Source of the DNA: Synechococcus sp.
Lineage (GTDB): Bacteria > Cyanobacteriota > Cyanobacteriia > PCC-6307 > Cyanobiaceae
Reading direction: 5' to 3'
Assembly: GCA_047285805.1 (NCBI GenBank)
Contig: JBJBCN010000003.1
Location: 480,001 to 544,000, forward strand
Length of the DNA: 64,000 nucleotides
The notes below the pieces were generated by a model. The model saw only the letters and a list, made by a program, of their open reading frames with translations, was not told the DNA's origin and ran no database searches. Positions 1 to 13,301 of the stretch are shown here, in pieces (positions within the stretch are counted from its first letter, which is position 1; every line of letters starts with the position of its first letter). Position numbers and translations under genes: made by a program.

Positions 1-1045
<1,045 letters not shown>

Positions 1046-1056
1046 GCCGGAAGAAT

Positions 1057-2184
1057 ATGCACGTCTCATTCTTTAAAAAGCCTCAAATTAACTCTCAATA
1101 TCGAAAAAAGTTCTATGAGTACCTAGATCAACTCATTACCGGTGATGATTCGCTAGTTTTGGGTCACTACTGTAAGGAGTTTGAAAAAGAGTTTGCTAGA
1201 ACTCTTGGTGCTTCTCATTGTAACTTTGTCTCTAATGGCTTAGATGCTCTTTCAATTGCACTGAGAGCCGTAGGTGTACAGGCTGATGATGTTGTTATTG
1301 TTCCCAACCACACTTACATTGCAACTTGGATCGCACCTCTCTCAATTGGCTGCAATTTGATAGTCGCACCTGTTTCTGAGATTGATCTATTACTTGAGCC
1401 CTCTACGATTGAGAAGTATATAACAAGCAAAGTTCGTTGTATTATTCCCGTTCACTTATATGGGAATGCGTGCCAAATGCAGAAAATCATGTGTTTGGGT
1501 GAAAAGCACTCCCTAGTTGTTGTTGAGGATGCAGCTCAGGCACATGGAGCTAGATCTGGTGACAAATATATAGGTAATTGGGGTGATGCAACATGCTTTA
1601 GTTTTTATCCAACTAAAAACTTAGGTGCTCTTGGAGAAGCGGGTGCTGTTACCACGAACGACCCTAGGATCGCATCATTTGTTCAAAGCTATAAGAACTA
1701 TGGACGCTCTTTGTCTGATCCGTCTCTTAATACTCTGCTAGGTTCAAATCATCGTGGCGATGAAATTCAGGCAGCATTCTTAACTATTAAGCTCATGGCT
1801 CTCGATAAAATCATTAAAAGGCGACACGAAATAATCCAAAGGTATGAGCAGCGTATTAATGGCTCTACACTACCTTTTAAGCTGCTTCCATATCATAATT
1901 GTCAGAGTTCTCCCCATCTAGCAGTTGTACGTACAGAGAACAAAGCAACCAGAGACTCTCTCGCCGCATATTTGCACGCTAAGCAGATAGATGCTCCAAT
2001 TCACTATAAAAGACCTTGCCACACACAGCCGTGTATTGACACACAAAGAATTTCGATCGACCAAGAGTGCAAAGAACAGGCTCTCAAGATTTCTGAGACT
2101 ATCCTCTCAATTCCAATGAGTGAAGTACATACTAATGAAGAAATCGACTATGTGATTGAGACTCTTTGCCAATATGAATCATAA
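1057..2184 (+). CDS. DegT/DnrJ/EryC1/StrS PLP-dependent sugar aminotransferase (FdtB/QdtB-like)
   Basis: SNGLDAL, IIPVHLYG, VEDAAQAHGA, SFYPTKNLGALGEAGA (PLP lysine). Confidence 0.92.
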   Translation: MHVSFFKKPQINSQYRKKFYEYLDQLITGDDSLVLGHYCKEFEKEFARTLGASHCNFVSNGLDALSIALRAVGVQADDVVIVPNHTYIATWIAPLSIGCNLIVAPVSEIDLLLEPSTIEKYITSKVRCIIPVHLYGNACQMQKIMCLGEKHSLVVVEDAAQAHGARSGDKYIGNWGDATCFSFYPTKNLGALGEAGAVTTNDPRIASFVQSYKNYGRSLSDPSLNTLLGSNHRGDEIQAAFLTIKLMALDKIIKRRHEIIQRYEQRINGSTLPFKLLPYHNCQSSPHLAVVRTENKATRDSLAAYLHAKQIDAPIHYKRPCHTQPCIDTQRISIDQECKEQALKISETILSIPMSEVHTNEEIDYVIETLCQYES

Positions 2185-2630
2185 CCCCCTTCAGCTGATA
2201 ATCGGATTCCTTTAGCTTGGTTCCCTGAAACAACTGTATGGCATGCTACTGACATTGTTGCAACGCTTAGTTGCTGAAACCATAGAGCCTTTGCTAATTC
2301 TGATACGTGGCAAGATCACAGCTGCAGCACTAATGCGGCACCCTTCTTCAACTAAGATTATCTCAGGCTGCTTGCAATATTAGCTCTTTGGTTTTAAGTC
2401 GTTGAAGAAAGGCACCCAAGGTCCTATTAAAATAGAATCAATAATGATTCCTCCTCGCCAAAGAGAGACTTTTTTGATAGCAACTAGGTCACCTGTAATA
2501 GCCACGCTCTCAACAAAACACCTGTCAGATATGCTGCGGTCAGCACCAATTATTGCGCCTGAAATCATACTAACATATGACAATAACCTTTGTCTTTCTC
2601 CTACAAGCAAAGTCTTGATCACAGGGTGAC
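2185..2630 (-). pseudogene. degraded hexapeptide-repeat sugar N-acyltransferase (FdtC/WxcM N-terminal-like)
   Basis: GAIIGADRSISDRCFVES...LIGPWVPFFNDLKPKS, in-frame TAA at 2382-2380, then YCKQPEIILVEEGCRISAAAVILPRIRISKGSMVSAT, a frameshift, and SVATMSVACHTVVSGNQAKGI; collinear with the family pattern TNDxxPRS...GASIGANATILPG...GNPAR. Confidence 0.75.
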
Positions 2631-2674
2631 GACCTTTGAAATACCCTTAAGCTGCAACCGCAAACTTATGAACA

Positions 2675-2683
2675 TGATACGAT
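2675..2683 (+). promoter_or_regulatory. possible extended -10 promoter element (TG-A-TACGAT)
   Basis: TGnTAnnnT about 24 nt upstream of the ATG at 2707; sequence match only. Confidence 0.3.
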
Positions 2684-2706
2684 GAGAATTACAAATAGTA
2701 ATCTTA

Positions 2707-4032
2707 ATGGATCAAGTCAAGGCAATAAAACTGCTTTCAGAAGGCGGAATTGAGAGGCTCTGCTTAGCTTTGATGGACTATGACTACGATCTTTATGCGC
2801 AGGCTAAAGAGAACGAAGGGCAGTTAAACTATCTTAGATATCAAGGCAAGATAGAGTGGGCCGTTCAAAACTATCTATACACTAATCTTTATGGCTCAGC
2901 GGAATCTGTAGCCACTTCGTTAGCGAAAAAAAATAGCCTGAACAAACAAACCTCCGTTGAATCTAAGTTTCTTGAAAAAACAATTCTTCTTCTTCATAAT
3001 CCAAGTTTGGCTGCACATATCTCTGTTCTCACATCTATGCAGGAGGCTTTCTTAGACTCATTCAGATCGGACGGTCTATACATAGCCGTTCTGTTTAAAG
3101 ATGTTGAATATGCTTGGTGGAAGGACGAGATTCAATCTAGAGGATTTACTTGCATTCCTCAACGTGACTGCTCTCCATTCCAAACACTGATGGAACTACG
3201 TGACGTATACCGACCTAAGCAATATATATGGTGGGGTCCTCCCGTCTACCAGTGGCTTAGTCCTCTAATTGATCCAGGTGCTATTCATCGAAGCGTCAGC
3301 TTTAAATACGATGTTCCTCAGTCGCCGCGCTTCAATTCACATCATATTGGCTATGGAAAAAACTATGCAAGCAAAATCAGTTCGGTGGTTCCAGTTTATG
3401 GCTTTCACCAACCAATCACTCTTTCATCGATGCCAGGTGTATTACCTTCTCAGCTTCAAGAAGCTGCATCTAAGTCTCAAATGTCGTTGAGAACTAACGC
3501 TATGTCAACTCGATCAAGAATAAATATAGGCGTACTTGCACGAGCCGAAAAAGTCGCACAGCCAAGCTATCTAGATGCGATTTTACAAATACTTCATCAA
3601 GACAATAGGCTTGTTTTTCATTGGACAGGACAGCACGAACGTGGCGATATATCTGCCGCTTTTGAAAAGTATGGCCTGGCAACCAGACACCATTTTCATG
3701 GTTGGGTGAATCCCTACGACTTTCTTTGCGAACTCGATCTCTACCTGGATACTTTTCCCTTTGGCACTGGTCAAAGCCTTGTGATGGCCGGATATATGGG
3801 ACTCCCAATCATTTCCTTAGTCTCACCTTATGAAGCTAGCTTCACTAACCTCTTCAATAACTTTCTGTTGGAAACTCTTACAGTGCAGTCAGCAAAGGAC
3901 TATGTAGCTCGCGTTCTTGACATATGTGCCGAAAGGCATGAAGTCCCTATTGGTAGTGAATTGCACGATCAATTCAGGCTATGCTTCGATCGTCAATCCC
4001 TAATTGACCTGCCGGCTCAACTTGCTCTGTAA
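2707..4032 (+). CDS. putative glycosyltransferase with GT41 (O-GlcNAc transferase/HMW1C-like) C-terminal domain
   Basis: C-terminal IGVLARAEK...FHGWV...LDLYLDTFPFGTGQSLVMAGYMGLPIISL resembles the SPINDLY/OGT pattern DxxLDTFPYNGxTTxxxALWMGVPVVTL; N-terminus unrecognised. Confidence 0.55.
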   Translation: MDQVKAIKLLSEGGIERLCLALMDYDYDLYAQAKENEGQLNYLRYQGKIEWAVQNYLYTNLYGSAESVATSLAKKNSLNKQTSVESKFLEKTILLLHNPSLAAHISVLTSMQEAFLDSFRSDGLYIAVLFKDVEYAWWKDEIQSRGFTCIPQRDCSPFQTLMELRDVYRPKQYIWWGPPVYQWLSPLIDPGAIHRSVSFKYDVPQSPRFNSHHIGYGKNYASKISSVVPVYGFHQPITLSSMPGVLPSQLQEAASKSQMSLRTNAMSTRSRINIGVLARAEKVAQPSYLDAILQILHQDNRLVFHWTGQHERGDISAAFEKYGLATRHHFHGWVNPYDFLCELDLYLDTFPFGTGQSLVMAGYMGLPIISLVSPYEASFTNLFNNFLLETLTVQSAKDYVARVLDICAERHEVPIGSELHDQFRLCFDRQSLIDLPAQLAL

Positions 4033-4802
4033 TGGCCTTTAACGGACACTTCCTGGCGATCGTTAAAGCATATATCGACCTGATCAACAATAGAAATGAA
4101 CCAATGCATCCAACGCGTACTCTTTTTAGTGTAGGCTTTCCTGATATCGTTTCTAAGCAAGGCTCCCTCGATCCTCACATTGATCAGCACTTAAAACCCT
4201 TTGAGATACATAGCCCAGAAACGCTGAGCTGGCATAATCTTCCCAACGATAATACATATACTACTTATAGCATGTCAAAATTTTGTGCTAGTGAAGGATG
4301 GGACTGTAAATACCTAGACATTGCGCCGGGCACCGGTGGCAATTCTTCATCATTTCACCATGTAGATCTTAACAACGACCTGGATCAGTCATTGTACTCA
4401 TCTTGTGACATACTTATTGACAGCGGCACTGCCGAGCACTGCTTTAATATAGGCAAGGTATTCGAAAACTACTTTCATATATTGCGACCCGGAGGTTTTG
4501 TATTGCAATATATTCCCTTCTTGTCGCCAAACCATGGATTCTGGAGCGCCAATCCAACTGTTTTTTATGATTTGGCAAGCTGTAATCCAATCAAGGTATT
4601 CTTGTGTGAAATGCAGTCATTTGCCAGCTACCGAGACTATTTCGTCGGCGACTATCAAAGCATTCCCTTTTCCCCGGTTTCTCGGTTTAAATTGCCTGCC
4701 GAGCTAAGCCTTGATATGACAGTGCTCATGTTCGCTGTATACAAAAAGTACAAGAAAAGTACTTTCAAGTATCCCATTCAGGCCAAATATCGCCCACTGT
4801 AG
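4032..4802 (+). CDS. class I SAM-dependent methyltransferase-like protein
   Basis: YLDI...VDLN...DILIDSGTAEHCFNIGKVFENYFHILRPGG; TAATG overlap with the upstream gene. Confidence 0.7.
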   Translation: MAFNGHFLAIVKAYIDLINNRNEPMHPTRTLFSVGFPDIVSKQGSLDPHIDQHLKPFEIHSPETLSWHNLPNDNTYTTYSMSKFCASEGWDCKYLDIAPGTGGNSSSFHHVDLNNDLDQSLYSSCDILIDSGTAEHCFNIGKVFENYFHILRPGGFVLQYIPFLSPNHGFWSANPTVFYDLASCNPIKVFLCEMQSFASYRDYFVGDYQSIPFSPVSRFKLPAELSLDMTVLMFAVYKKYKKSTFKYPIQAKYRPL

Positions 4803-5098
4803 AGTTCACTTATTGCGTCGACCATGTAGAATATGCTTCATCTCACCTTCTGAGGTTACATTACGTTAATAGTATATCTTTCTTGGGCCTTAGACAAGCC
4901 GCATCCCTATTCCTGACTTCCACTCGATATGGGAACTAGTTGTTTCCCTAATTAATGGAACCCTGACCCGTTGTTTGCTCCTTATTTGCGTGGGGTGGGG
5001 TGCTGGCGTTCTTGCTTTCCTGTTGGTCTCACGGTCTTCGCCGTATGAAAGCAATGCTCCCAGTAGTATGGTCGCTTATTAGCGACCATACTCGTTCC

Positions 5099-5107
5099 TG
5101 CTATGAT
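5099..5107 (+). promoter_or_regulatory. possible extended -10 promoter element (TG-C-TATGAT)
   Basis: near-consensus TGnTATAAT about 26 nt upstream of the GTG at 5133. Confidence 0.35.
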
Positions 5108-5132
5108 TCGTCTACGTTATTGATGTGTCAGT

Positions 5133-5714
5133 GTGAGTGTCATTACAGATGCATACCTCAAAGAGCAGCAAGAACTACACAAGAATCCTAAGTATGGTAT
5201 TGCCTCCACAATATATGCTCCAGTTGTAACTGAGGTAATTAAACAGCTAAAAATATCTACACTAACCGATTATGGTGCCGGGAAGCAAAGACTTTATCAA
5301 GCCTTGGTTGATAACGGCATACACCTAGAAAAATATAATCCTTATGATCCAGCTTTTCCTGAGTATGGAAATCCAAAGCCTGCGCAGCTAGTTTGCTGCA
5401 TAGATGTGCTTGAGCATGTTGAATTAGATTGCCTGGATGACGTGCTATCTGAAATTCATAGAAATATGCAAGGCTATTGTTTTCTGACTGTTCACATTGG
5501 GCCAGCAGCGAAGCATCTCTCTGATGGTCGCAATGCTCATATCACTCAGGCTCCATCATCATGGTGGCTAAAAAAGTTGACAGACTACTTTGAAGTCCTA
5601 CAGCTTCAAACAACTACTGCGCTTGGTCGAGGTTTCTGGATCATAGGTAGCAAGAAAAAAGGTGAGTTGAAGATAAACTCACATGAACGGCTTAAGAATT
5701 CTCCTCCTTCGTAA
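5133..5714 (+). CDS. class I SAM-dependent methyltransferase
   Basis: TDYGAGK motif I, YDPA, LVCCIDVLEHVE, GRNAHIT..SWWL. Confidence 0.8.
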   Translation: MSVITDAYLKEQQELHKNPKYGIASTIYAPVVTEVIKQLKISTLTDYGAGKQRLYQALVDNGIHLEKYNPYDPAFPEYGNPKPAQLVCCIDVLEHVELDCLDDVLSEIHRNMQGYCFLTVHIGPAAKHLSDGRNAHITQAPSSWWLKKLTDYFEVLQLQTTTALGRGFWIIGSKKKGELKINSHERLKNSPPS

Positions 5715-6130
5715 ACCCGTTGCTCGTTATTAACTAAATTGACTTTCTGCTGTCAGTGAGTTGATTCTCTGTTTCCTGCCTAGTCTTTTTTGGTTATTGC
5801 TTTGAATACACTTCGTTCAGCTGTTCGTCGAGTGGGGAGCTGGCGAGCCTTATATGTTTCTGACTAATGTCCCAGATGCTTTCGACTGACTGGGCGGTTT
5901 CAAACCTTTTTGCGATCCTCGCGGAATGCTTTCTTCTGACATAGACAAACATGCTGAACTCATTCATCTACACATAGTACCTTCGTTTTCTATATGAAGC
6001 TTGCAAAAGGCCAGTCTTTGCTCCCCATTCAATGGAAATATCGAAAGAACCGACTATGAAAAGTACAGCTACTATATCTACGGGAGGCCAGATCAACTTA
6101 CCCGCTTGCTTCATGGAGGGTATACACTTC

Positions 6131-7282
6131 CTAGGCTGAAACATTAGCCATCGCAGCGAGGGCATCCTGAATCCATTTCTGCTCTCTTAATCTAAGCTGT
6201 TCAGACTTGCGGCTTAATAGCATCTCATCATCACGAAAGCGTTCTGTTAGCCTAGTTGCAATATAACGTGTAAGATCTAGCTGATAAATAGAATCAGCTT
6301 TCAGATGTTCAATTAGCATCTTTTCAACTCTTGCATAACCAATGGCCATATCACTTAAGCCATGAACTGCAGCACCTAATCCAAATAGCTTGAGATAAGG
6401 CTGGCAAAGCTCTCCCATTACAGCGGCATCATGATCAGTAAGTCTGTAGCCCTTCTTAGCCTTTGCTGAGGCAAAGCCCTGAATACCTACACTTCGTGTT
6501 GTCAAAGGAGTCGTAAAACTAGATCCACAGAATGTAGACTGATGCAATGATGAATGATAGCTAATACCAAGGTATGAACATATTCTGTTCAGTGAACTGA
6601 GTGTATCTGTCTTCAACTCTTCAAGCGTAATCGTCATAGCATTGTGGTGAGCCTTAAAGGCTATTGCGTCACTCATGGAAAACATCCAAAAGAACGAGAA
6701 AATCTTCGCCGGATCAGCCGAAAGGTCGGCAACCCATGTTGTAAGAGACTCAATATTATCCTTAAGCCCCCTTCCCTGCATAATCACTTTAAAACTAGAA
6801 TCTACCGAATACCCCACTGCCTCTTTAACGCTACCAATTGGGTCAATTACATCAGCATTGAGCAGTAGGTTGCCGTTACTTGTTTTTATATCTAGGCAAA
6901 GGTTGTGCACAAGTGCCAGGGATCTTAATATAGTCTCCTGAGAATCACCCGCTCCAAGGCTCTTATGTAAATATCCTTGCTCTTCTGCACATCTTGTTAA
7001 TCGTGACAACGTTAGATTATATGGAAGCCTCGAAGGGCCGGCTTTTATCGCGTCTAAGCCACCCATTCGAACATGCACCGGTGAAAATTGTTCTGAGTGA
7101 AATACTTTTAAAACTTCTTCAAATGTAATGCTGCTACGCTCTTCATATACTGTCTGGTTAAGCCACTGCCAAGTCCGAAATAGTCCCGAGCCGGGCACCG
7201 TAATGATGTCTGGATGGTCGCTCAAAAGGCTTTGATGAAAGTAACAACCGCATCGTCCTTGAGGCAAGATAATATAAATCAT
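6131..7282 (-). CDS. divergent sulfotransferase-fold protein; candidate phosphoramidate transferase
   Basis: N-terminal QGRCGCYFHQSLLSDHPDI resembles the sulfotransferase 5'-PSB region GRSGTTLLQSLLDGHPEI; ITLEELKTDTLSSLNRICSYLGISYHSSL resembles (Y)EDLxxDPxxxLxxICxFLGI; ATGA-coupled to the cytidylyltransferase. Confidence 0.55.
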   Translation of the reverse strand: MIYIILPQGRCGCYFHQSLLSDHPDIITVPGSGLFRTWQWLNQTVYEERSSITFEEVLKVFHSEQFSPVHVRMGGLDAIKAGPSRLPYNLTLSRLTRCAEEQGYLHKSLGAGDSQETILRSLALVHNLCLDIKTSNGNLLLNADVIDPIGSVKEAVGYSVDSSFKVIMQGRGLKDNIESLTTWVADLSADPAKIFSFFWMFSMSDAIAFKAHHNAMTITLEELKTDTLSSLNRICSYLGISYHSSLHQSTFCGSSFTTPLTTRSVGIQGFASAKAKKGYRLTDHDAAVMGELCQPYLKLFGLGAAVHGLSDMAIGYARVEKMLIEHLKADSIYQLDLTRYIATRLTERFRDDEMLLSRKSEQLRLREQKWIQDALAAMANVSA

Positions 7283-8043
7283 CTTTCTAGTGAAGAGGAA
7301 GTCTTAAAGGCACCGGCAATCATCTCCATTGAATTGTAAAGAAGCAAGTCTGCTTCTTCGTCTACTTCACCCCATCCGTCTGAGTAAGGAACTCCGTAAA
7401 TAGTGCCTGAATCAGACTTCGCTATGCAATTTAAGATGTCGGTCATAAACATCTTATCAACTTTCTTGTTGGACGTCCTTGAAAGCTCGTCCTTGATAAT
7501 GCCCCAACCTTCAGCCGTAAACTTCATCAATCCCATATACTGACCCATAATCCTGTCAAGAGAAACACCCTTTTCGCCCAGCTCGACTACGCGCCTATCT
7601 CTATCGATAATAAAAGACTCTGCATCACTGAGAGGATTCTTAAAGCGTCTCGACCATAGATCGAGCCAGTTCTCATCATACAAGATGGCTATATCATGAA
7701 GAGATCCGATGAGGCTCTCGATAGCAGATGCCTGATAAAATATATCAGAATAACTGACAACTGTAGCGCTCGTAGAAAGCCATTCTGAAGCCGCAAGCAA
7801 CGATCTAACCATATTACTATGCTCCCAACATCTATTTTCGAATGTCACTAATCCTTTATCGGTAAGCATGTCAGCTCTATAGCCAGTAACAATCGCTATC
7901 TCCCGAATGCCAGCCTGATTCAGCGAATTAATCTGTCTATCCAAAAGAGATACTCCTTTAACTTCTACCAAGCACTTTGGCCGATTAAGTGTATGCTTTC
8001 CCATCCTCGAGCCGCGTCCTGCTGCTAAAATCAATCCCTTCAT
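7279..8043 (-). CDS. nucleotidyltransferase of the LicC/phosphocholine cytidylyltransferase family (Cj1416-like CTP:phosphoglutamine cytidylyltransferase)
   Basis: LILAAGRGSRM...RPKCLV, NMVRSL, VVSYSDIFY, PLSDAESF, GQYMGLMKF, WGEVDEEADL. Confidence 0.85.
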   Translation of the reverse strand: MKGLILAAGRGSRMGKHTLNRPKCLVEVKGVSLLDRQINSLNQAGIREIAIVTGYRADMLTDKGLVTFENRCWEHSNMVRSLLAASEWLSTSATVVSYSDIFYQASAIESLIGSLHDIAILYDENWLDLWSRRFKNPLSDAESFIIDRDRRVVELGEKGVSLDRIMGQYMGLMKFTAEGWGIIKDELSRTSNKKVDKMFMTDILNCIAKSDSGTIYGVPYSDGWGEVDEEADLLLYNSMEMIAGAFKTSSSLER

Positions 8044-8624
8044 AAAAATAGGCTCTGAATACGGTCAAGCACAAAAGAGTCTAGTTGAGGTTCTCTCTCT
8101 GGATGCCACATCCAACCTTCCCATGGCAAAGCCATATGCCTGATTGCTTCGATCTCCATATCTTCAGATCGCGCAATAACTTTAAAACCTATCGGGCACG
8201 ACTCAAGAGCATATTCGTGGAAACTATTGACGTTCCAACAGATATCCCCCGATAGTACATGCCTAACTTTGACGTGTGCGGCGACCCTATGCAGCGCAAC
8301 ACCTCCCCATTTACCCATGAGCTGCATTCCTCGACAAATGCCAAGAACGGGAAGCCTTTCTTCACTTGCTATATCTAGTATAGAGATCTCTGTATCGTCG
8401 CGCGATTGAGACTCTCCAAGATTATTTCCACCGGTCAACAAGAAACCACACGGCTTTACATGCCTAATCCACTCCTTGGTGTAAGGCCCCAACACATTGG
8501 GTATTGGCACTGGTAAAAAGCCGAGCCTTAAAACCATTTTACTAATCTTCTGGTCAATCGCGTCACGAGTCTCTTCTCGTGACGCGATTGTATCAACACG
8601 CTGAGTGACTCCTATAACTCTCAT
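8040..8624 (-). CDS. class I glutamine-amidotransferase-fold hydrolase (Cj1417-like gamma-glutamyl-CDP-amidate hydrolase)
   Basis: IGVTQRVD...ETRDAID, LLTGGN, PVLGICRGMQ (catalytic Cys), VNSFH, MWHPER (His-x-Glu); start at 8624 by ATGA overlap. Confidence 0.85.
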   Translation of the reverse strand: MRVIGVTQRVDTIASREETRDAIDQKISKMVLRLGFLPVPIPNVLGPYTKEWIRHVKPCGFLLTGGNNLGESQSRDDTEISILDIASEERLPVLGICRGMQLMGKWGGVALHRVAAHVKVRHVLSGDICWNVNSFHEYALESCPIGFKVIARSEDMEIEAIRHMALPWEGWMWHPEREPQLDSFVLDRIQSLFL

Positions 8625-10936
8625 GGAAGAATCGTCACCTTCTTCTTGGCGCAATCGAGGTGAACTCGATCAGCCATCGAAATCTTTCTGTAGAGAACTT
8701 CTCCAGTACCTATAACAGCCGGAAGCCCCAGCTCACCCGCACGAATAGCCATATGTGAATTAACCCCGCCCCAAGCTGTTACTAATCCCCCAATCCCGTA
8801 AGCAAAAAGCCAGTCATAACCCGGGTCTGCATGTGAAATGCATACAATCTTTCCTTCTAAAGCATTTGAATTATCTGCAAAGCACACTGATGAGACTATT
8901 TCTTTTTGACTTATAAAGTTTGGAATCGTTTCAGGCCACTCAAACTGCCATACATCTGAATGATCGACTATTAGGGGTGGAAGAGTCGTTCTGAGCGCTG
9001 CCTCATACTGGACACGCCCTTGTTCAATCGAAGTATTCAAAAGCTTGACGGGATCTGTCGCTGAAACTGCTAGTTCCTGGAAGGCCCTTATCTCACAGAA
9101 TGCAAGATCTTCACGACTGAAACCGTAGCTTTCTCCTACCTGCGAGACTAACTCAAGCGCATCTGAAAGATTCTTTGAAAATTCAAACTTTGCCAGTTCC
9201 CGCATCTCAATACCTGTTTGCATAAAGTCAAATAGACTCACTGCATCGATATCTAATTCATGAGTTGATAAAAGATGATTTAACTCTTTCATCTGATCTA
9301 AACGCAGAGAAAACGATTCTTCCTGATGGTTCTTGCCTATGTCAGCGTCCCAGTTAAAATAACGGTCCGGAGCTTGGTCGTATCGTGGCGACGTTATGTC
9401 ATAAGTCCCAGGTCTTAAATGACCATAACGACGCAGAAAATTGGATCGATCCAGAGTTGTCCGATCGCGAGTCAACTTCTTGCTAACAGTTGACAGAGAC
9501 TCCATGAACCTATCAGCATCTGATCTGGACAATATTCCCGTTGTCACTAGGGATTGCAACATCTGAACAGCTATAAAGCCAGCCCGAGCTAGTCCTGCGA
9601 ATGGTAATGTCCCATAACGTTTGCCGTCTTCAAGTAGCCAATATATTTTTTCTATGGGATGAGCATCGCCGTGCAAAATTTGATCCCGTCTTTCCTTAAG
9701 TCTCCCAATCTTCTTAGAATCATTTAGCCATAGCCCCTTTTTGGGGTGAACAATGGCATTAGTCAGATCCTTGAGACTTTCAGAAATCCGCAGACAATCG
9801 TCTTTCGAAAAACCGCTTTCGCTGAGAACATCTAATCGAGAATCAAGGTCAAAAGTATAGCACGAAAAAACTATCTCAAACTCGATCTTGTCGTGCAGTG
9901 CCGGTTGCTCAAGAAGCTTCCCGAGGTAGTAGTCAGCCAACCTTGTTGCAATATGCTCTTCTAGCGACGCAGGTATGAACGAGTTAAAAGATAGTCTTAC
10001 ATCTATGTACGGAAGTCCATAGAAATTAGGCATCAGGGGGAAGCTACGAAGGTTCCTATACCCATAGTTATGACGTTGGTAAGCCCATATTGAATCCGTT
10101 ACCATATCTCTATATAGGGACAAAGCTAAAGGCTGAGGACGCAGGCCAACTATTTCAGCCGGATTCCAGTCAGGCATTACTCCATAAACAGTTCTACTTC
10201 CTAGCAAGAAGGAATGCTTTTTCATTCCATCTCTTACCTTATCTTCAATAGACTTTAATCGCTTCTCCTGGCTCTCTTCAGATTCGGGGGTTCTAGCTAA
10301 GACCAGTGGTCGAACCTGAAGTAGCCAAGTCTCAGATTCCTCACGCTCTTGTGTAACTGCAAACTCGCAATCAATAGGCGAATCGTTGAATAGGTGAAGT
10401 AGCTCTTTGAGTAGACTTATTATTGGTGCTAAGGCCGGTAATGGCGCCAATTGGCTCTTAGAAGCCTGTTGCCATATACGACCTCCTTGCCCGCTAGTGA
10501 CAAACTCAGTATCATCTGAATCTGACCAGTTAACTACTCTATATGCTGATCCGTTCGCTGGATCGTGAGAAAAAGCAACACCGGAGCGTATTACATTCTT
10601 TAGCATCGGCTGTATTAGTACCTGATCAGCGTCATTCTCTCGACCATATGAGCTGAAAACATTATCTACCGACTCTTCTAGGTCCTTTCTCTCCACATTG
10701 GGCACTGACAGAAACGCACCAGCGTTAGAGGCGATGCGTGTGTCTTCAAGTCTGCAGCTAGACCGGACAATAAAGCTATTTGATCCATTCAAGGCCTTCA
10801 CTGCCTCATTGATCACGCTTTTCTTATTCTCTTTCCAGCTCTTTAGCGTCAATATATATGATTCCGGGACTCTCGCCGACATTAGTCGTGATCTGACGAG
10901 CTCCAGGTTGTCAGCTTTCGTAGAAAAGCTCACCAT
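8621..10936 (-). CDS. PEP-synthase/PPDK-like swivelling-His kinase (Cj1418-like L-glutamine kinase)
   Basis: N-terminal ATP-grasp IVRSS..ED...SNAGAFLS and LQVRPL; central GVMPDWNPAEIVGLRP, WAYQR.NYGYR, KRYGTLPFAG; C-terminal phospho-His domain GGVNSHMAIRAGELGLPAVIG. Confidence 0.9.
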   Translation of the reverse strand: MVSFSTKADNLELVRSRLMSARVPESYILTLKSWKENKKSVINEAVKALNGSNSFIVRSSCRLEDTRIASNAGAFLSVPNVERKDLEESVDNVFSSYGRENDADQVLIQPMLKNVIRSGVAFSHDPANGSAYRVVNWSDSDDTEFVTSGQGGRIWQQASKSQLAPLPALAPIISLLKELLHLFNDSPIDCEFAVTQEREESETWLLQVRPLVLARTPESEESQEKRLKSIEDKVRDGMKKHSFLLGSRTVYGVMPDWNPAEIVGLRPQPLALSLYRDMVTDSIWAYQRHNYGYRNLRSFPLMPNFYGLPYIDVRLSFNSFIPASLEEHIATRLADYYLGKLLEQPALHDKIEFEIVFSCYTFDLDSRLDVLSESGFSKDDCLRISESLKDLTNAIVHPKKGLWLNDSKKIGRLKERRDQILHGDAHPIEKIYWLLEDGKRYGTLPFAGLARAGFIAVQMLQSLVTTGILSRSDADRFMESLSTVSKKLTRDRTTLDRSNFLRRYGHLRPGTYDITSPRYDQAPDRYFNWDADIGKNHQEESFSLRLDQMKELNHLLSTHELDIDAVSLFDFMQTGIEMRELAKFEFSKNLSDALELVSQVGESYGFSREDLAFCEIRAFQELAVSATDPVKLLNTSIEQGRVQYEAALRTTLPPLIVDHSDVWQFEWPETIPNFISQKEIVSSVCFADNSNALEGKIVCISHADPGYDWLFAYGIGGLVTAWGGVNSHMAIRAGELGLPAVIGTGEVLYRKISMADRVHLDCAKKKVTILP

Positions 10937-10940
10937 GTTT

Positions 10941-11714
10941 CTACTTCTTAACTCTTGCTGACCAGGCTCGAGTTAGGTATGTAGCATTTATGCATTCTAA
11001 GCTACTAACCTTTTCCTCTACATACTGCATGAATTCCTCGAATGAGTTGGGCCCTAGCTGAACTCTTAGGTCATTAACAGATCTCCACGCTGTCAAATAT
11101 CTTTCAGTGCTCATCGCAATCTCATGAGTGGCTTCCATGTAGATAACATCCTCAAAGAGTCGAGACTCCCTAAGTCTTTGCGTCAATGACTCGGTCATGC
11201 CTGATCTGCCAGATGAAACGCGTCTCACAGAAGGCTTGATGACTTTGATCTGTGCTTCAATTTCGACTAAAAGTGGGTTGGCTTCAATGAGTCGTGGGTT
11301 CCAAACAGCTGTGAAAACACCTTCTGGTTTTAAAACCCTATAAAATTCTTGTGTTGCAGTTTCAAAATCTGCCCAGTGAAAGCTTGACGCCATACTCACC
11401 CAATCACTACTTGATGACGGCAGCCCTGTATGCTCGGCAGAGCCTTTAAGCCACTGAATCTGCTTACCTGCGCTATCTAAGATCCCTGCATCTCTCATAT
11501 CATCATTTGGCTCGACAGCCGTGGAGGAATAAACACCCTTAGAGGCAACCATCCGTGTCCATATTCCAGTCCCTGCACCAATATCAGTAAAAGCAATATC
11601 TGACACCTGCTTACCTGTATATCCAATTATGGAACTGATTACCGAATCGCTGTAGTTGGGGCGGCTAGATGAGTAACTGGAGGCAAGCCCAGTGAAATCA
11701 GCATGCTTTAGCAT
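10941..11714 (-). CDS. class I SAM methyltransferase (Cj1419-like candidate phosphoramidate O-methyltransferase)
   Basis: DFT.LA..Y..RP.YS, DIGAGTG, AVEPNDDMR, MASSFHW, FTAVWNPR, RVSSG, AWRSVND, RAWSAR; ATG at 11714. Confidence 0.85.
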   Translation of the reverse strand: MLKHADFTGLASSYSSSRPNYSDSVISSIIGYTGKQVSDIAFTDIGAGTGIWTRMVASKGVYSSTAVEPNDDMRDAGILDSAGKQIQWLKGSAEHTGLPSSSSDWVSMASSFHWADFETATQEFYRVLKPEGVFTAVWNPRLIEANPLLVEIEAQIKVIKPSVRRVSSGRSGMTESLTQRLRESRLFEDVIYMEATHEIAMSTERYLTAWRSVNDLRVQLGPNSFEEFMQYVEEKVSSLECINATYLTRAWSARVKK

Positions 11715-12297
11715 TGTGCGATTTAACCCAACGTTCAATTGACTTTATCATTGATTCTGCGACCTTTACTGCGTTGCTCTCTGCATTGAACTCAAGCTCC
11801 CAGTTTGGATGCTTGGGTTCATCTACAGGCAGGTCCAATCCTGCAACATTGGATAATTCACCAGATCGGAAGCGTTTGTATATGTCTTTGGGATCCCTCT
11901 CTTCTAGTTTCTGGAGCGGGACCTTTAGGTACGCCTCGAAATAATTTGCAATATTCTCCCTGTTCCATGAATATACTTCTTCGAACATAGATATAGTCGC
12001 TATTATCACAACGACTCCTTGGGAGGCTAGGAGCCTGCACAGCCGCGAATAGCTTCTCGCTAGCGACAATCTCTCTGATCGCATGTGTGCATCGCCTGTG
12101 TCTGTTGATCCAAAGACCTCTCTGAGCTCGTCGCCATCGAGGCGCACCACGCATTTCCCTAGTCCAATGTAGTGATCGGCTACTAGCTTTGCCGTTGTTG
12201 ACTTTCCAGCACCTGATAATCCTGTTATCCAAATCACGAGGCCTTCCTCCTTCTCTGAACTCGGACTTGTTTCCTTCTTTGTTTTTAGTGCTTTCAT
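11698..12297 (-). CDS. adenylyl-sulfate-kinase-fold P-loop kinase (Cj1415-like cytidine diphosphoramidate 3'-kinase)
   Basis: IWITGLSGAGKST, LDGDELRE, ATISMF (instead of the usual APS-kinase ISP motif), ERDPKDIY. Confidence 0.8.
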   Translation of the reverse strand: MKALKTKKETSPSSEKEEGLVIWITGLSGAGKSTTAKLVADHYIGLGKCVVRLDGDELREVFGSTDTGDAHMRSERLSLARSYSRLCRLLASQGVVVIIATISMFEEVYSWNRENIANYFEAYLKVPLQKLEERDPKDIYKRFRSGELSNVAGLDLPVDEPKHPNWELEFNAESNAVKVAESMIKSIERWVKSHNAKAC

Positions 12298-13301
12298 GCT
12301 GTGGTTTGCCCAGGTTTTCCTGCTGTCGAATAGCTGATTGGCGCATACTAACGTCTAGCGGTGTCAAGTTAACTTTCAATCTTGGTTTGTCGCCATCTTT
12401 ATTCTTCTCTGACCCAGTGGGTGTGTTGCATAGTTGCTGTGCTTGTCGTTACTAGCATTCAAGGTTATGAGTATGTTTTACTTGGGCTTTCTCATTGATC
12501 GTGATATTAGCGTGTCTATGTGCTTAAGCCCTTTTGAGCTTTGCCTCTACGCCTTTATCCGTATTGACGCTCTTTGAACATATGACTTTCGCTTTCGAGC
12601 AAAGTATGTCGTCAAGAGTTCTTGTGTTTATCTCCGTCTGTCTCCATGAGCATGCAAATAGTTCCTGATGTTTTTACCTCAACTTCCAGGCTGAGCAGAC
12701 TTTGTCACTGATTGAGCGACTTGCCTTGACTCCTTGGTTGATTTAGTGCCTTGTTGTGTGATCTGTGTTTGTTGTCGCAAGTGTCTAGGCTAAAAGCATC
12801 GGAACTTCTGTTTCTTGACCAACAGCATTGTATAGACACGGAGAGCTTTGGCTTGAGCGATGTTGGTGCTTAGTCAGTGTGTGACTATCCCCTGCGCCGC
12901 ATTAGTTGCTTTGCTGCCTCAATCTCTTCATTCCCAGTCGCAAGGTGGAGCTGATGTATTATTTATGCAATCGCCCTTGTTAGAAGTCTTCCCTAGTATT
13001 TCTGCGGCCATCCGTTCAGCATTTGCATCCTGCGAGATCGCTTCTCACTCTTTGCTTAAGCAAGCAGTTTGAACTTACACTAATCCTGGTTGGGCTTGTG
13101 GGCGTCACCACAAAGCACTTCCTGCTGATATCTACAAGTAGTCCGAGTCACTATGTGTGGCCGCAAGTACTGATGCATGCAGATCAAGATCACGGTGCGG
13201 GATCTTGAAGGATTCTAGTAAGTTCTGGCTGAGCAGCAGCGCAACAGACCATTGCAGCCGCTTAAGCTCAAACACCTCTTTCAGCTAAACATTCTGGGCA
13301 T

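Follow-up and report, generated by a model that had tools for sequence, protein, structure and literature searches.

Which enzyme moves a phosphoramidate group from its nucleotide donor to a sugar is the question raised by a six-gene minus-strand operon in a 64,000-nucleotide stretch of the Synechococcus sp. genome (contig JBJBCN010000003.1, positions 480,001 to 544,000 of the forward strand; this whole stretch is called the window, and plain coordinates refer to it). In Campylobacter jejuni the final step of O-methyl phosphoramidate (MeOPN) attachment, the transfer of the P-N group to the sugar, is known only genetically through Cj1421 and Cj1422, and a passage of a 2025 paper from the laboratory behind the donor pathway describes the MeOPN transfer step as still to be elucidated (PMC12409886). 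In the 5' to 3' direction the operon encodes a kinase of the adenosine-5'-phosphosulfate (APS) kinase fold, an S-adenosylmethionine (SAM) methyltransferase, a PRK05849 protein, a protein of the class-I amidotransferase fold, an NTP_transf_3 protein and, as its last product, a soluble protein of 383 amino acids with a predicted sulfotransferase fold (6131-7282, minus strand). We consider it fairly probable that this last protein, a candidate phosphoramidate transferase and the target of this study, transfers phosphoramidate from 3'-phospho-cytidine-5'-diphosphoramidate (3'-phospho-CDP-amidate) to a hydroxyl group of a surface glycan. A first-pass annotation of the window had proposed that a sulfotransferase scaffold was repurposed for this reaction, and its interpretation as a whole is partly supported by the results described below.

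The gene at 6131-7282 is a real, intact and full-length open reading frame (ORF). Its start codon ATG (7282-7280) shares bases with the stop codon TGA (7281-7279) of the 254-residue NTP_transf_3 gene at 7279-8043, and the resulting ATGA at 7279-7282 (minus strand), already pointed out in the first-pass annotation, was read directly from the sequence; from this overlap we infer translational coupling of the target to the cytidylyltransferase. The protein has no hydrophobic segment (maximal 19-residue Kyte-Doolittle mean 1.14), and the gene contains no homopolymer run of at least six identical bases, i.e. no phase-variation tract. Scans for promoters and terminators returned no more sites than were found in shuffled sequences (12 vs 13.9 and 6 vs 5.9, respectively). 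In a word-index homologue search the target matched only itself (1 match among 3970 candidates); an exhaustive HMMER search of 1.84 billion representatives yielded 65 proteins at E <= 1e-3. A single one of them, P0002, is a close relative (E 1.8e-33, 33% identity) and the only one among these representatives with more than 30% identity. Twenty of the 25 relatives that were scanned with Pfam carry Sulfotransfer_3 or Sulfotransfer_1, many of them behind tetratricopeptide repeats (TPR).

For structural analysis an AlphaFold2 model of the target was built on a 34-row MAFFT alignment of the family (A1; a closer 10-row alignment is referred to as A2). The model has a predicted local distance difference test score (pLDDT) of 79.4 and a predicted template modelling score (pTM) of 0.82; the pLDDT is only 57-71 over residues 151-210, and residues 316-382 form an extra C-terminal helical tail. 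Foldseek returned 11 matches at E <= 0.001, and those listed were all sulfotransferases, led by the CurM sulfotransferase (CurM ST, 4gbm; E 1.4e-5) and followed by OLS ST and TPST1/2 (probability 1.00 each). Superposition on CurM ST by VIA-align gave Z 13.2 with a root-mean-square deviation (rmsd) of 4.8 over 243 residues, and all 50 chains listed were sulfotransferases (Z 13.2-8.0, over residues 1-310). Furthermore, the family profile matched CurM/OLS ST (E 1e-14) and TPST (E 1e-12) in the PDB, and a protein atlas assigned the target with 0.97 to sulfotransferase clusters. By Pfam, Sulfotransfer_1 (PF00685) remained sub-threshold in the target (E 0.011, 15.6 bits vs a cut-off of 22, residues 203-244) and Sulfotransfer_3 (PF13469) gave no match. 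The P-loop sulfotransferase fold anticipated in the first-pass annotation is thereby confirmed at the level of the predicted structure.

As annotated before, residues 8-15 of the target read QGRCGCYF. This loop had been called an altered nucleotide-binding loop, and it does differ from PRSGTT; it is nevertheless the norm of its family. The N-terminal family motif G-R-[SC]-G-[SA]-x-F ... H-P is found in the target (G9, R10, G12, F15, H23), and since its first part is common to 26-32 of the 34 aligned members, the altered loop is a family trait. In the profile search of the PDB the family loop GRSGS paired with PRSGST/PRSGTT in CurM/OLS ST and TPST. Within the target loop (G9-R10-C11-G12-C13) Arg and Gly are kept, but the change is slightly greater than in the family, as Cys occupies both hydroxyl positions. 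Invariant in A2 are G9, R10, G12, F15, H23, R171, E178 and E221; S179 occurs in 9 of 10 rows. A1 shifts the row of the window protein by three residues at R171...S179, where A2 was followed. In the model R171 follows the strand 164-170 and S179 lies in the helix 173-185 (RGLKDNIES), at a spacing of 8 that we take to be canonical for the Arg/Ser pair binding the 3'-phosphate in sulfotransferases. From sequence and model, R171/S179 is the predicted 3'-phosphate-binding Arg/Ser pair, in agreement with the binding site that the first-pass annotation had called for. The R-x-P motif is changed from Pro to Leu in the target. E221 of the 'rlEDLk' ('EEL/EDL') motif, present in 33 of 34 rows of A1, and the S-T-F-x-G motif (S249, T250, F251, G253) are kept.

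The link to phosphoramidate chemistry comes from genomic context. In a forward survey (one genome per species) 306 stretches with relatives of the operon's glutamine kinase were found, the best 80 of which were taken with flanks of up to 10 kb, and all ORFs of at least 90 residues were searched with the family profile. Matches occurred in 17 of the 80 kinase loci at a domain E <= 1e-5 and in 19 at a full-sequence E <= 1e-5, and in 18 of these 19 the match lies 0-3.8 kb from the kinase; a Pfam scan adds L008 as a kinase locus with Sulfotransfer_3 (E 1.8e-13). The linked hosts include SAR116, Holosporales, Gammaproteobacteria, Brevundimonas (on a plasmid) and Helicobacteraceae (Pseudomonadota, Campylobacterota), further Lachnospiraceae, Oscillospiraceae, Selenomonadales and Flavobacteriaceae (Bacillota, Bacteroidota), Candidatus Daviesbacteria (L059) and a Nanoarchaeota metagenome-assembled genome. 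The SAR116 locus L005 has a six-gene order identical to that of the window, and on the Brevundimonas plasmid one ORF (L040:12500-15607) fuses NTP_transf_3 (204-328) to Sulfotransfer_3 (527-698). The co-occurrence proposed in the first-pass annotation holds at the level of both loci and genomes, though not 'consistently': with 17-19 of 80 clusters, the sulfotransferase-like family is the commonest single partner of the kinase clusters and far from universal. The presence of a Cj1415-like kinase does not discriminate between loci with the family (16 of 19) and without it (49 of 61), and the three exceptions have cut flanks.

A reverse survey started from 43 metagenome loci chosen by the N-terminal motif of A2; in this sample, which rests on one pattern and is biased towards that motif, 14 of the 43 loci carry a glutamine kinase together with the rest of the set. 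On four further, truncated contigs (L093, L101, L104, L123) a Cj1416-like or Cj1415-type gene adjoins the family gene, while L088 lies beside a CysC-like kinase and L117 is ambiguous. The association was also followed at the level of whole genomes, across 401 genomes sampled evenly from the phylum of the window. Glutamine kinase scored over its cut-off in 12 of them and the A2 profile matched in 42; among the kinase-positive genomes all but one, which is 64% complete, had a family match (11 of 12), as against 31 of the 389 kinase-negative ones. These 31 matches are mostly partial, inside ORFs of polyketide synthase size, or ordinary sulfotransferases of 300-350 residues. Counted by genus, 6 of 7 kinase-positive genera have a family match. 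One genus contributes four genomes whose family genes are separated by more than 10 kb from every pathway gene; each of these genomes nevertheless has the kinase on a different contig.

A quick tree (LG+G4) was computed from 119 domain rows after 13 of 132 matches with fewer than 180 profile positions had been dropped. Its rows comprise 38 linked members, 5 unlinked ones and 76 without known context, and the linked members are scattered across the whole family. The label 'linked' needs 17 changes on this tree vs a mean of 32.4 after shuffling, with a value as low in 0 of 500 shuffles. The window protein pairs with P0002 (SH-aLRT 96) on a branch of 1.92.

For comparison, the canonical MeOPN transferases were considered. 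An excerpt of the literature (PMC5808241) ascribes to the Cj1421/Cj1422 type a conserved N-terminus, a predicted transmembrane segment and the domain DUF2972, and states that genetically defined MeOPN transferases carry DUF2972. The first-pass annotation had recognised no such protein in the island; indeed DUF2972 (PF11186) has no match at E <= 1 in the whole, 100%-complete genome, so that no canonical MeOPN transferase was detected elsewhere either, and none at E <= 0.1 in the target, which likewise shows no match to PF28160, the N-terminal domain of the Cj1421 type. What did not stand is the implied contrast in scaffold. The Campylobacter protein in the cj1421 position of L054 has DUF2972 (E 5e-30), and its full-length relative P0066 (97% identical, 528 amino acids), modelled from 38 sequences, gave a pLDDT of 89.8 and a pTM of 0.84. 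The best Foldseek matches of this model were heparan-sulfate 3-O-sulfotransferases and NDST1 (probability 1.00, E 6e-3), with no match at E <= 1e-3; VIA-align superimposed it on NDST1 with Z 12.4 and an rmsd of 4.0 over 235 residues, and all 50 listed chains were sulfotransferases (residues 132-513). The sole invariant residues of the DUF2972 alignment are R227 and P229 of an RDPIS motif, and in one protein, P0099, DUF2972 is fused to APS_kinase.

Judged by these models, a sulfotransferase scaffold appears to be common to the genetically proven DUF2972 transferases. Because the model of a DUF2972 protein also shows the sulfotransferase fold, such a scaffold is probably the rule for phosphoramidate transferases and not a replacement, and the target family would be a second family on the same scaffold as DUF2972 and not a new scaffold. 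The relation between the two families is claimed by predicted fold only: profile-profile comparison was not significant (probability 54% at E 1.3e-4 for 6 rows and 11.9% at E 0.0025 for 38), and hhalign pairs, without significance, only the R-x-P...S (RDPIS) and EDL segments. We found no paper stating a sulfotransferase fold for DUF2972 or Cj1421-type transferases, and none relevantly joining cj1421 or phosphoramidate with sulfotransferase. As a separate observation, up to six DUF2972 ORFs stand in tandem in Helicobacter/Campylobacter loci (L029, L030, L058), several of them split into fragments of 140-330 residues as expected of phase-variable genes.

The other five genes of the operon, all on the minus strand, would supply the donor. 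The Cj1415-like kinase of the APS-kinase fold at 11698-12297 (NF004041, 186.7 bits) is likely a CDP-amidate 3'-kinase. It stays under the cut-off for true apsK (TIGR00455, 113.6 vs 138.7 bits), and the true apsK/CysC of the genome is a separate gene 260 kb away (G000:C3:750449-751003, 269.7 bits). With kinases beside glutamine kinases elsewhere the operon kinase shares 50-54% identity, and those kinases are 29-31% identical to the CysC of this genome; by sequence it is a kinase distinct from the true CysC. The SAM-dependent methyltransferase at 10941-11738 (Methyltransf_11, E 3.8e-15) is homologous to Campylobacter/Helicobacter methyltransferases adjoining the glutamine kinase in the cj1419/cj1420 position (phmmer E 5e-57 to L054:8352-9164 and 4e-59 to L058:8397-9188). 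It is followed by the Cj1418-like L-glutamine kinase (PRK05849) of 771 amino acids at 8621-10936 (NF004508, E 7e-293, 973 bits, cut-off 501). The Cj1417-like gamma-glutamyl-CDP-amidate hydrolase of the class-I amidotransferase fold at 8040-8654 (Peptidase_C26/GATase) best matches the model NF045546 for this activity with 97.8 bits, under its cut-off of 250; translation more likely begins with the ATG at 8624 than at the ORF start at 8654, and this ATG forms a second ATGA overlap (8624-8621) with the stop of the glutamine kinase at 8623-8621. The Cj1416-like CTP:phosphoglutamine cytidylyltransferase at 7279-8043 (NTP_transf_3, Pfam PF12804, E 2e-19) has homologues in 76 loci among the 80 glutamine-kinase loci and the window. 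The only other sulfotransferase of the genome is an ordinary Sulfotransfer_1 protein on another contig (G000:C2:157277-158107, 61 bits, over the cut-off).

The operon is embedded in a low-GC island of about 12 kb (1001-13000; GC 0.40-0.46 vs 0.57-0.65 in both flanks) between thiC (63-629) and tkt/fabF, in a high-GC host genome of 2.37 Mb that is 100% complete. The glutamine kinase is absent from the searched genome of the same genus and from 29 other genomes of the same taxonomic family, 28 of which also lack the sulfotransferase-like protein family, and we therefore regard the island as lineage-specific. Pfam further identified an FdtA-like gene (524-1045), a DegT aminotransferase (1057-2184) and, as a weak match, a GT1-like glycosyltransferase (GT) gene (2707-4032); two weak methyltransferase-like ORFs are also present in the island. 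Together, FdtA and DegT point to a 3-amino-3,6-dideoxyhexose. Just upstream of thiC genes of the 3-deoxy-D-manno-octulosonic acid (Kdo) pathway were found (SIS+CBS, HAD, CTP_transf_3 and DAHP_synth_1, i.e. KdsD/C/B/A-like; L174, G000:C3:460001-480000). Because the island has FdtA, DegT and GT genes and adjoins these Kdo genes, the acceptor is probably a lipopolysaccharide (LPS)-like glycan.

The enzymology of the phosphoramidate donor pathway of C. jejuni was reportedly worked out by Taylor, Raushel and co-workers in 2017-2018. In analogy to it, the five upstream products would convert glutamine, ATP and CTP into CDP-amidate, the 3'-hydroxyl of which would then be phosphorylated. The product, 3'-phospho-CDP-amidate, would be the cytidine analogue of 3'-phosphoadenosine-5'-phosphosulfate (PAPS). 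Sulfotransferases hold the 3'-phosphate of PAPS by an Arg/Ser pair. In the target, R171/S179 may hold the 3'-phosphate of the donor in the same manner, and the strand-loop-helix with G9-R10-C11-G12-C13 its 5'-phosphate, like the corresponding loop of PAPS enzymes. In-line transfer of the terminal PO2(NH2) group to a sugar hydroxyl would then release cytidine 3',5'-bisphosphate, and the methyltransferase (10941-11738) would make the O-methyl ester either before or after transfer.

Compared with C. jejuni, all four enzyme types of the MeOPN donor pathway (Cj1418, Cj1416, Cj1417, Cj1415) and a methyltransferase recur in the window operon; here, however, they sit in a 12-kb low-GC island of a high-GC genome. 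Cj1421 and Cj1422 adjoin Cj1415-1418-type genes and a methyltransferase as the target does, both families have a predicted sulfotransferase fold and an Arg-led 3'-phosphate motif of the R-x-P type, and by analogy the reaction would be identical. They differ in size (about 590-600 amino acids, 592 and 603, PMC13317227, vs 383), in the transmembrane segment predicted in the excerpt of PMC5808241 vs a soluble target, in the G(9) tracts of the C. jejuni genes (PMC13317227) vs a target gene without homopolymer tract, and in the loop (N-G-x-S-A in the Cj1421/Cj1422 type vs GRCGC). With the PAPS-dependent sulfotransferases (CurM ST 4gbm, OLS ST 4gox, TPST1/2, 3-OST/NDST) the target shares the fold (Z 13.2-10.6), the N-terminal strand-loop-helix with its Arg, the Arg...Ser 3'-phosphate motif and the 'EDL' segment. 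In contrast to them, it is only 12-16% identical and below the Pfam gathering score, carries Cys in place of the loop hydroxyls and a helical tail (316-382), and is genomically coupled to a cytidine-based donor pathway, not to sulfate activation.

Several points weigh against assigning phosphoramidate transfer to the target, an activity that we infer from linkage. Of the 80 kinase clusters, 59-63 lack a detected family member, and other kinase clusters carry LtaS/sulfatase-like, TagF-like or LicD genes. The genomes behind the counts in the 401-genome sample are kin, so these counts are not independent, and one family member occurs in a kinase-negative genome of the taxonomic family of the window (G258). 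In the tree a clade of nine TPR-fused rows is unlinked, and for L088 and L117, which are among the 38 rows labelled 'linked', the label depends on an unspecific kinase threshold. The window protein itself stands apart from its family, with an end branch of 1.92 and a single relative exceeding 30% identity. Its loop hydroxyls are replaced by Cys, and the His that the family has after the third strand (30 of 34 rows in A1, 8 of 10 in A2) is Asp144. Finally, all motifs kept in the target are equally those of PAPS enzymes, and as a true CysC is encoded in the genome, PAPS is presumably available.

These last points lead to the alternative that fares best, an ordinary PAPS-dependent sulfotransferase which sulfates the same surface glycan and belongs to the operon since both decorations serve one polysaccharide. 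It would account for the fold and motifs, including the alignment of GRSGS with PRSGST, for the true apsK in the genome, for family members without a glutamine kinase within 10 kb or, in one case, in the genome, and for the member beside a CysC-like kinase at L088. It leaves unexplained, however, the linkage of roughly 20-30% to a pathway found in 12 of 401 genomes, the fusion to a cytidylyltransferase, the association at genome level (11 of 12 vs 31 of 389) and the predicted sulfotransferase fold of the MeOPN-linked DUF2972 proteins; moreover, no other transferase for the operon product was found in the island or genome. On balance we regard sulfation by the target as unlikely. The deviating residues raise a second alternative, namely a catalytically altered or non-catalytic member with a donor-binding, scaffolding or hydrolytic role, or a gene decaying in a recently acquired island. 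The exchange of His for Asp144, a residue kept as His in 30 of 34 rows, the Cys at both loop hydroxyls, the Pro to Leu exchange in R-x-P, the long branch with a single close relative and the pLDDT of 57-71 over residues 151-210 fit such a protein. The ORF is nevertheless intact, full-length and presumably translationally coupled, and R10, G12, R171, S179, E221 and STFxG are kept. P0002, the closest relative, has Ser where the family has His; the loss of this His is therefore inherited and not a lone lesion, and Asp144 could itself serve as base. An altered or decaying protein is accordingly given only a small chance. Transfer of phosphoramidate from the 3'-phosphorylated donor to a protein, lipid or small metabolite is very improbable, for although the closest structures act on polyketide intermediates and protein tyrosine (CurM ST, TPST), the island otherwise holds sugar-modification genes (FdtA, DegT, GT) beside Kdo genes and the linked loci elsewhere are glycan loci.

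Apart from the target family, the kinase loci contain further candidates, recorded in part by a Pfam census of the clusters without detected transferase, which covered 85 of the 172 candidate ORFs in 25 of the 50 loci; some clusters yielded no partner that could be named. DUF2972 proteins occur among the 80 loci only in the Campylobacter/Helicobacter loci L029, L030, L054 and L058. In Lachnospiraceae-type loci (L032, L033, L035, L036, L037, L046, L051) a protein of about 596 residues with a weak Sulfatase/LtaS match stands directly before the kinase (e.g. L037:8192-9982), accompanied by a formyltransferase-like protein and an unnamed 190-residue protein; it may be a different transferase solution. 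An LtaS/sulfatase-like protein was also found at L041:8705-9988. TagF-like Glyphos_transf genes are present at L004:7832-9064, L009:13277-15109, L011:6999-8216 and L042:6659-8329 and, as a weak match, in L015, the one of L004 holding the exact position of the sulfotransferase-fold gene of the window; a LicD gene lies in or beside the kinase cluster at L044:8575-9441. TagF-like and LicD proteins are families that use CDP-activated donors. Near the kinase set of an uncultured Prochlorococcus contig a 500-residue protein with N-terminal TPR repeats (L006:6781-8283) contains a segment RDPIDRIAS that matches the 3'-phosphate motif of the family weakly (E 0.023), and by this resemblance it may be a further, so far undetected sulfotransferase-fold partner. 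Inositol-monophosphatase (CysQ-like) genes occur in 10 of the 80 loci (L017, L022, L028, L029, L031, L034, L043, L058, L059, L074; e.g. L058:13658-14473), with either DUF2972 or the sulfotransferase-like family, and none was found in the window. They would fit a phosphatase clearing cytidine 3',5'-bisphosphate, by analogy to CysQ, which clears 3'-phosphoadenosine-5'-phosphate (PAP). In the phylum sample one glutamine-kinase match has an in-frame TGA (G013:C236:2865-5174).

Beyond the single gene, we see about even chances for a more general reading, in which 3'-phospho-CDP-amidate is a PAPS-like group-transfer cofactor in use well beyond Campylobacter, its transferases all have the sulfotransferase fold, both the DUF2972 proteins and those of a distinct and widespread Sulfotransfer_3-like family to which the target belongs, and a marine picocyanobacterium-like genome has obtained the complete gene set on a 12-kb island, with which it decorates an LPS-like glycan with (methyl) phosphoramidate. 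If this general reading is true, the need of the pathway for a 3'-kinase would be explained by the sulfotransferase fold of its transferases. If small, soluble sulfotransferase-fold proteins like the target carry out the transfer, the analogy to PAPS would account for the puzzling 3'-phosphorylation of the donor, the reaction could be assayed without the membrane-associated, phase-variable Campylobacter proteins, and many 'sulfotransferase' annotations beside PRK05849 kinases would have to be revised. Hypervariable glycan islands of marine and other environmental bacteria probably help determine how susceptible these are to phages. For Campylobacter, excerpts from two studies describe the P-N decoration as a phage receptor and immune modulator (PMC3907429, PMC3417653). 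With a transferase of the kind proposed here, this rare surface decoration would extend to marine and other environmental bacteria.

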